Shown here piece after piece: positions 34,094 through 34,281 of a stretch of DNA of 64,000 bases. Source of the DNA: Eledone cirrhosa (lineage: Eukaryota); NCBI GenBank assembly GCA_964016885.1, contig OZ024740.1:399962001-400026000 (forward strand), given 5' to 3'. The position numbers were made by a program, and so were the translations under genes. A model generated the notes under the pieces. It saw only the letters and a program-made list of their open reading frames with translations, searched no databases and was not told where the DNA came from. Numbering within the stretch: position 1 is the stretch's first letter; each line of letters starts with the position of its first letter.

Positions 34094-34281
34094 ATAGGAA
34101 CGAGTAGGACCCCAACGGCTGAGCTCAAGCCGTTTCGACGGCTAATTCAGAATTAGCCGTCGAAACGGCTTGAGCTCAACCGTCGGGGTTCTACTCGTTC
34201 CTATTACCCACTCTACTACCCTAAGTATTGAGTACTTTGGTGCGTTATGGTCCACCTGGTTCCTTACCACATTTCCTTCGT
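34094..34281. mobile_element. Family A fold-back half-hammerhead element in (TA)n (best copy)
   Basis: 111-bp palindrome centred on 34149; GAAACGG c ttgagctcaa CCGTC gggg; tail to 34281. Confidence 0.9.

Follow-up and report, generated by a model that had tools for sequence, protein, structure and literature searches.

Penelope-like elements (PLEs) characteristically insert together with an inverted, 5'-truncated copy of themselves and with a tail at one end only (PMC8557442), and the way in which these inverted and tandem structures form, like the cutting of PLE hammerhead ribozymes in vivo, is described as an open question (PMC8557442; PMC11167929; PMC4209133). Self-priming was proposed in 2013 for the palindromes found at PLE junctions (PMC3846280), and for PAc, a Poseidon element of Anolis, priming from both target strands has been seen in vitro (PMC11167929). 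We analysed a window of 64,000 nucleotides from the 3.0-Gb genome assembly of Eledone cirrhosa (contig OZ024740.1, positions 399,962,001 to 400,026,000), and in particular a palindrome at 34094-34204 of this window. Tens of thousands of minute head-to-head insertions, this palindrome among them, derive from the pseudo-long terminal repeat (pLTR) of a Penelope-type element, here called family A.

Positions in the element are numbered from the A of AGTCCAG, which lies in loop II of the hammerhead and is taken as +1; the arms then run from +1 to +58 and from +1 to +138, and the ATG of the open reading frame (ORF) lies at +232. The palindrome consists of the end of this pLTR, +5 to +138, joined head-to-head to +7 to +58 within a (TA)n target, and we consider it probable that it was made from two cDNAs, each of which ran off the 5' end of its RNA. 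The observations on which this reading is built are the identity of the arms with the pLTR, their fixed 3' ends, their pairing, the piles of 5' ends, an extra G at the junctions and jumps from other parts of the element.

The palindrome and its parental element

The palindrome is 111 bp long, is centred on A34149, contains three mismatched pairs and folds at -96.8 kcal/mol (z = -18), a value that none of 200 shuffled sequences equalled; no contig among those checked from two public DNA sequencing runs spans it. It lies between a left (TA)n target run (34063-34096) and a right one (34282-34420). The short arm (34097-34148, minus strand) aligns in inverted orientation to +7 to +58 of the parental copy at locus L180 and is without the tail; its 3' end, at the base of hammerhead stem I, would mark a first start site of reverse transcription (RT start site 1). 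The long arm (34148-34281, plus strand) extends from +5 to +138 with 94% identity to the L180 unit over 140 nt, and the two arms meet head-to-head at 34148-34149 with one common base, a junction that falls in loop II of the parental hammerhead. Following the folds of the parents, the long arm carries on its plus strand the 3' strand of stem II (34152-34161), then GAAA, stem III with a palindromic loop and the GUC triplet (34162-34184), and the 3' strand of stem I (34185-34201; +42 to +58). Cleavage is predicted after 34184 (+41/+42), in part from the genome-wide pile of arm ends at +42 described below. The 80-nt tail (34202-34281; +59 to +138) corresponds in the parent to leader running to the ORF, and its end at +138 would be RT start site 2. 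A preliminary description of this DNA had reported the palindrome, the GAAAC, stem III (ACGG/CCGT) and GUC that follow its centre, and the presence of only the 3' half of a hammerhead on each arm, all of which we confirm: the partner strand of stem II and a UUGANAA core are missing from the copy. Its proposal that the sequence had been folded back exactly at stem II does not hold, because the centre lies at +5/+7, in loop II, and the stem II 3' strand pairs in the parent with another, upstream strand. The perfect TTGAGCTCAA is a variant of the window copy, most copies having TTGAGCTCAG or TTGAGCTCTG.

Some copies of the family extend upstream into an element with reverse transcriptase (RT) and GIY-YIG motifs. 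L180 has the arrangement pLTR-ORF-pLTR, with a unit of 3,118 nt, an intact ORF of 719 amino acids and an inverted truncated copy, and pLTR direct repeats from partial tandems are present in both L180 and L333. The L180 protein carries YRDD (RT) and a C-terminal YIG (GIY-YIG endonuclease) and has 834 relatives at E <= 1e-30; a Pfam search with the L152 frame, which is near-identical to the L180 ORF, returned no match, and the domain assignment therefore rests on motifs. Traits given for the Hydra clade of PLEs include DKT, CxCX5C, CxxC-x-x-E, CxH and RWK, together with a C-terminal GIY-YIG domain and targeting of (TA)n (PMC8557442). Absence of the CCHH motif from the endonuclease is a further trait of the clade, for which the L180 protein was inspected by eye. 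The L180 protein has DKT at residue 117 and a CxCX5C linker, CxxC beside a conserved E and CxH beside N at residues 572, 670 and 698 respectively, and the insertions of the family sit in (TA)n. At residue 37 it reads RWR for RWK; 17 of 26 full-length relatives have RW[RK] and 8 have RWK. The element differs from the published clade in a unit of 3,118 nt where those of the clade are generally under 3 kb, in a U3-A8 or C3/A8 hammerhead core and an 80-nt tail in place of a canonical core and a tail of 30-40 nt, and in that the great majority of its copies are sub-200-bp pairs that we read as run-off products (PMC8557442). Placed by these motifs, the parent is an autonomous endonuclease-positive (EN+) PLE with Hydra-clade protein motifs. 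Identity with Naiad is ruled out by the C-terminal position of the endonuclease, and the A/T run is not the poly(A) tail of an opposite-strand RNA, because it is the other strand that carries ORF and ribozyme.

The parental pLTR folds as a type I hammerhead with three stems around the core; this is the minimum free energy structure in three of five parents and lies within 2.2-2.7 kcal/mol of it in the other two. On this map +1 falls in loop II, the 3' strand of stem II occupies +9 to +18 and stem I ends at +58, and cleavage is predicted after +41 (GUC). The 5' half of the ribozyme has 5,768 matches genome-wide, which bears out the existence of a full-hammerhead parent, and the hammerhead reading of the preliminary description is likewise supported, but the half that is absent from the palindromes is usually UUGANAA and not CUGANGA as had been supposed. 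Among the first 100 of these rows, scored by eye, 75 have a U3/A8 core, 23 C3/A8, two U3/G8 and none the canonical C3/G8, which is a reported trait of the Hydra clade and not its definition; all four bases occur at position 7 in the same rows. Looking for CTGANGA in the 32 nt upstream produced 43 matches, none of which makes a hammerhead; the real gap of 48 nt exceeds this distance and the core is non-canonical. Rfam returned no match for the parental pLTR up to E = 10, and the 150 matches listed of 417 for the window were all repeat-driven, microRNA-type and below threshold, with no hammerhead among those listed. A type II permuted hammerhead is ruled out, there being no CTGANGA downstream. 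The minimal hammerheads of the Schistosoma Cercyon PLE resemble the present one in U3-A8 covariation, a free position 7, a palindromic loop III, location in the pLTR and motif pairs on opposite strands, but in family A stem III is 4-5 bp long and the putative start site sits in a long, branched loop of stem II (PMC4209133). We note that the parents with a C3/A8 mismatch form a subfamily (L212, L153, L337 and L338) whose stem I variant is carried by the window copy, and that L331 (G000:C1:5772330 and 5772560) is a diverged relative present as an inverted pair, with a U3/G8 core and a different stem II.

Arm ends, arm pairing and the origin of the palindromes

Exact matches to a motif in the tail number 38,655 genome-wide and those to a motif common to both arms 50,911, each with 0 matches for the reversed control; both counts are lower bounds on the size of the family. 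An unbiased sample, blind to the junction, was formed by the first 100 tail (long-arm) matches along C1 (0-18.85 Mb). Of these anchors, 74 were paired with a short arm, four with a long arm (two events) and eight continued into the parent, while 14 were scored as solo, about three of which look like missed pairs. The long arm ended at +138 in 66 of the 100, and 52 of the 74 short arms aligned to +61, that is +58 plus a TAT common to the target. When the shared motif served as the anchor instead, the partner was a long arm for 38 short arms and was scored as short for two, both of which look by eye like misreads. The two 3' ends are therefore used one per target end and not randomly, and the general PLE arrangement of an inverted truncated copy with a one-sided tail, here of 80 nt, is found in these pairs as it is in the long copies. 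PAc likewise has two internal RT start sites downstream of its hammerhead that define the tail, with cutting and extension of both target strands, an AT-rich target and a predicted dimer; no strand difference in start site was seen for PAc (PMC11167929), whereas in family A each end of the target takes its own one of the two sites.

Thirteen of the 74 pairs gave no score for the stem I variant; among the other 61, the variant agreed between the two arms of a copy in 45, as against a mean of 11.4 and a maximum of 21 in 2,000 shuffles. In a census of 51 copies chosen by a loose regular expression there were 45 distinct centres, with the centre of the window copy in none of the 51 and its mirror in two. 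As the centres vary between copies there was no single fold-back site, and the combination of diverse centres with concordant arm variants argues that each palindrome formed independently. The preliminary description had allowed for such independent formation; the common centre that it took as the rule is not general. It had compared the window palindrome with a second copy, of another subfamily (28336-28469, plus strand), which does have the same type of junction and its own variants mirrored in both arms, but in which the short, left arm is internally deleted and the long arm runs only from +5 to +105. A third, diverged copy (about 10848-10960, plus strand), with the short arm from about +16 and the long arm from about +67, has arms that do not overlap and is of the twin-priming type. 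In five motif-selected loci (L031, L049, L056, L040 and L059) arms of family A are joined directly to pieces of other repeat families present in the window (40660-40909 and 29277-29453), which suggests template jumps or joints across families.

The 5' ends of the arms gather near +1. Among 166 non-parent arms, 112 start between -8 and +8, 16 within the stem II strand and one further upstream. The base before +1 is G in 5,420 matches genome-wide and A in 890, where the parent has T or C; an excess of G over A is expected from the copying of an RNA cap, and in L1 an untemplated G at the 5' junction is an accepted sign of a copied cap (PMC9341517). In each of seven pairs chosen for adjacent G matches, both arms carry the G; between the arms lie 0, 1, 1, 2, 6 and 14 nt in six of the pairs and a long insert in the other. 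Leader-linked copies gave 68 matches, of which 30 were retrieved and 14 inspected; in 11 of these 14 the sequence jumps from a piece of leader or ORF back to +1 to +4, four of the 11 having G before +1 and no palindromic partner. At -29 to -31 the parents contain a TATA-like run, with TTAGTC or TCAGTC at +1; going by promoter consensus, we take these to be a TATA-like box and an initiator-like motif. The promoter of Drosophila Penelope is likewise internal (PMC2377424). Runs of T also precede +1, with six T in 818 matches; the most plausible source is untemplated A added to the cDNA, or slippage. It is likely from these positions that the 5' ends of the arms record where the RNA of the element starts and where the hammerhead cuts.

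The second pile of ends lies at the predicted cut. Matches starting at +42 number 962, compared with 112 at the control position +34, and 25 of 30 inspected were true starts. A search at +41 gave 376 matches, 67 of the first 100 rows beginning CCCGGGG, and in 16 of 30 inspected two +42 ends meet without a gap. Of 45 mid-arm ends in the unbiased sample, 10 fell at +40 to +43 (p = 0.003), and solo arms and one ORF jump also begin at +42; nine long arms begin at +55 to +64, at the end of the short arm, a pattern like that of twin priming on a single RNA. The simplest reading of the +42 pile is that it reflects templates cut by the ribozyme, and if this holds it would be new evidence, because in PAc no RNA reads ending at the hammerhead site are reported, whereas here about a thousand genomic matches start there (PMC11167929).

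We propose the following route. The arms are the pLTR of the parent, and the parent carries an intact ORF with RT and GIY-YIG motifs. A promoter within the hammerhead would start a capped RNA in loop II, and because the start lies there the RNA from +1 would be without the 5' half of the ribozyme. The protein would nick both strands of (TA)n and both ends would prime cDNA internally, at +58 and +138, as suggested by the fixed 3' ends and by the work on PAc (PMC11167929); the two sites would almost always be used one each, usually on the same RNA or on RNAs of the same subfamily. Each cDNA would then run to the 5' end of its template, which would be the cap at +1, where G is added, or less often the cut at +42, and some long cDNAs would halt where the short one begins. 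Either an end-to-end template jump or host end joining would link the two cDNA ends, with minor loss and addition of bases. The templates may be the 5' end of the coding mRNA or short RNAs from the promoter of the 3' pLTR, both of which would start at +1. The short copies, without a TATA-like box, are probably dead-end products.

Several points weigh against this route. Start site, cap and cleavage are each deduced from junctions in DNA, and the unbiased sample covers the first 19 Mb of one contig. The T-runs before +1 demand an extra assumption, part of the G excess may derive from the sequence of the partner arm (L172 and L195), and in a small sample the base before +1 was T in 17, C in 10, G in eight and A in three, so that T or C was as frequent as G. 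The +42 count was compared with a single control position and the +42 and +34 patterns differ in CpG content; five of the 30 inspected +42 rows are merely an extra G in a run; and the C3/A8 mismatch found in 23 of 100 parents is expected to weaken cleavage, yet arms of the matching subfamily start at +42. Few pairs are clear chimeras of subfamilies (about 1-2 of 61), and the concordance of the arms fits folding back of one cDNA as well as it does two.

In that alternative a single cDNA would come to a halt within stem II or close to it, fold back to serve as its own template, and afterwards be linked to the opposite end of the target. It gains further from the many centres that have 1-7 nt of microhomology or an A/T run able to act as a loop, and the centre of the window palindrome itself would fit a small fold-back. 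However, the ends pile up beyond stem II and not at its entry, as the counts of 112 and 16 arms given above indicate, and +1 and +42 are also the positions where solo arms and jumps to other RNAs terminate. A fold-back would have to copy the long cDNA, because only this has the tail, which the short arm cannot template; yet the short arm holds at least 15 bases missing from the long arm in 18 of the 74 long and short pairs, against three in the reverse direction (p = 0.0015). Zero-gap joints, with no loop and with both arms complete to the template end, also speak against it. Of 15 long inverted copies, six have the longer reach in the untailed arm and six in the tailed arm, with three ambiguous. 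Self-priming after a stall in stem II, as put forward in the preliminary description, is thus largely refuted as a general route; as an account of the palindrome we regard it as improbable rather than dismissing it, because later deletion could mimic some of the asymmetry and because the arm concordance is what it would produce.

Long palindromes are unstable, and another possibility is that longer inverted insertions collapsed by deletion of their centres, the piles at +1 and +42 being deletion hot spots. Long inverted parent copies do exist and some centres are clearly eroded, but neither the extra G at +1 nor the sharp edge upstream of -8 is explained in this way, nor are the palindrome-free solo arms and ORF-fragment jumps that start at +1 or +42 (L252, L256, L260, L272, L275 and L287), and we think this quite unlikely. 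The very high copy number and the fixed outer ends could point to one ancestral palindrome amplified as a unit, either as a miniature inverted-repeat transposable element (MITE) or by a non-autonomous master element. The outer ends differ, however (+58 and +138), and there are therefore no terminal inverted repeats; the 51 copies have 45 distinct centres, those that recur span different subfamilies, and arm variants follow the subfamilies of the parents. Such amplification is very improbable, and the copies do not belong to the MITEs.

Production of the palindromes from two run-off cDNAs may be part of a larger scheme, which we offer as a tentative possibility and which seems to us doubtful as a whole: that the family records a retrovirus-like strong-stop step in Penelope elements, a step that would account together for pLTR, tail, inversion and the part played by the ribozyme. 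The 5' hammerhead, half-made by a start in loop II, would be unable to cut, while the whole 3' copy would cut at +41 and leave a terminal redundancy of 41 nt. An RT dimer would prime the two strands of the target at +58 and +138, close to the RNA's 5' end, and transfer of the cDNA to the 3' end of this RNA would give full-length copies and pLTRs, whereas a cDNA whose transfer failed would join its twin and give a palindrome. A direct joint of a +30 to +60 end to +1 was found in none of 341 loci. An annealed transfer would leave no trace, and tandem read-through explains the long copies equally.

Other elements in the window

Another Penelope-like family is present as an inverted pair at 29218-31889, and also at 12111-14073, with an RT frame at 29972-31045 (minus strand) and GIY-YIG frames on both sides; CTGAAGA...GAAA hammerhead-like motifs occur in it at 29381 (minus), 31726 (plus) and 12224 (minus). 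Fragments of two further elements, at 36200-37607 and 39507-39983 (both minus strand), have 40% and 49% identity respectively to the family A parent protein, and a CNCRDRSKC linker is present in the first. On the plus strand, at 37457, there is a CTGATGA...CGAAA motif. A perfect palindrome of 120 bp at 32108-32227 belongs to another family; its centre lies just before a CTGAAGA core that is followed by GAAAC and a short stem III, and it follows the same head-to-head logic with a different end point. At 20120-20400 there is an inverted pair of CTGATGAAG...GAAAC motifs (20179, minus, and 20304, plus) about 125 nt apart. The right (TA)n run of the window palindrome is adjoined by a 51-bp AT-rich palindrome (34429-34479), probably the end of another TA-targeting family because similar sequence follows (TA)n in L063, L058 and L140. 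Long arrays of 9-10-bp minisatellites with trinucleotide runs, at 53800-57250 and 57300-59280, account for spurious long frames.

Relation to other retroelements and significance

In L1 twin priming a second primer gives rise to an inverted segment, as here, but the L1 segments do not overlap whereas overlap here is usually full, and priming here is internal and not on poly(A). The extra G at the 5' junction is a further likeness to L1 (PMC9341517). Non-LTR retrozymes are also short, non-coding, pLTR-derived sequences with parts of type I hammerheads (bioRxiv 10.64898/2026.07.22.740005). They are, however, head-to-tail tandems with whole ribozymes, and the family A copies, as head-to-head pairs with half a ribozyme, do not belong to them. 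In the open-access literature we found no account of run-off pairs that map a start site within a hammerhead together with its cut site, although the supplements to PMC8557442, which hold Hydra consensus sequences and hammerheads, may include the family.

For annotation, short TA-flanked palindromes of this kind could be mistaken for MITEs or microRNA hairpins. The intact ORF of L180 and the (TA)n target make the proposed scheme directly testable in vitro. For the biology of PLEs, tens of thousands of independent junctions in a single genome map a likely RNA start and a likely ribozyme cut to the base, and the same set of junctions shows that each end of the target uses a different one of the two RT start sites and argues against self-priming as the general route.
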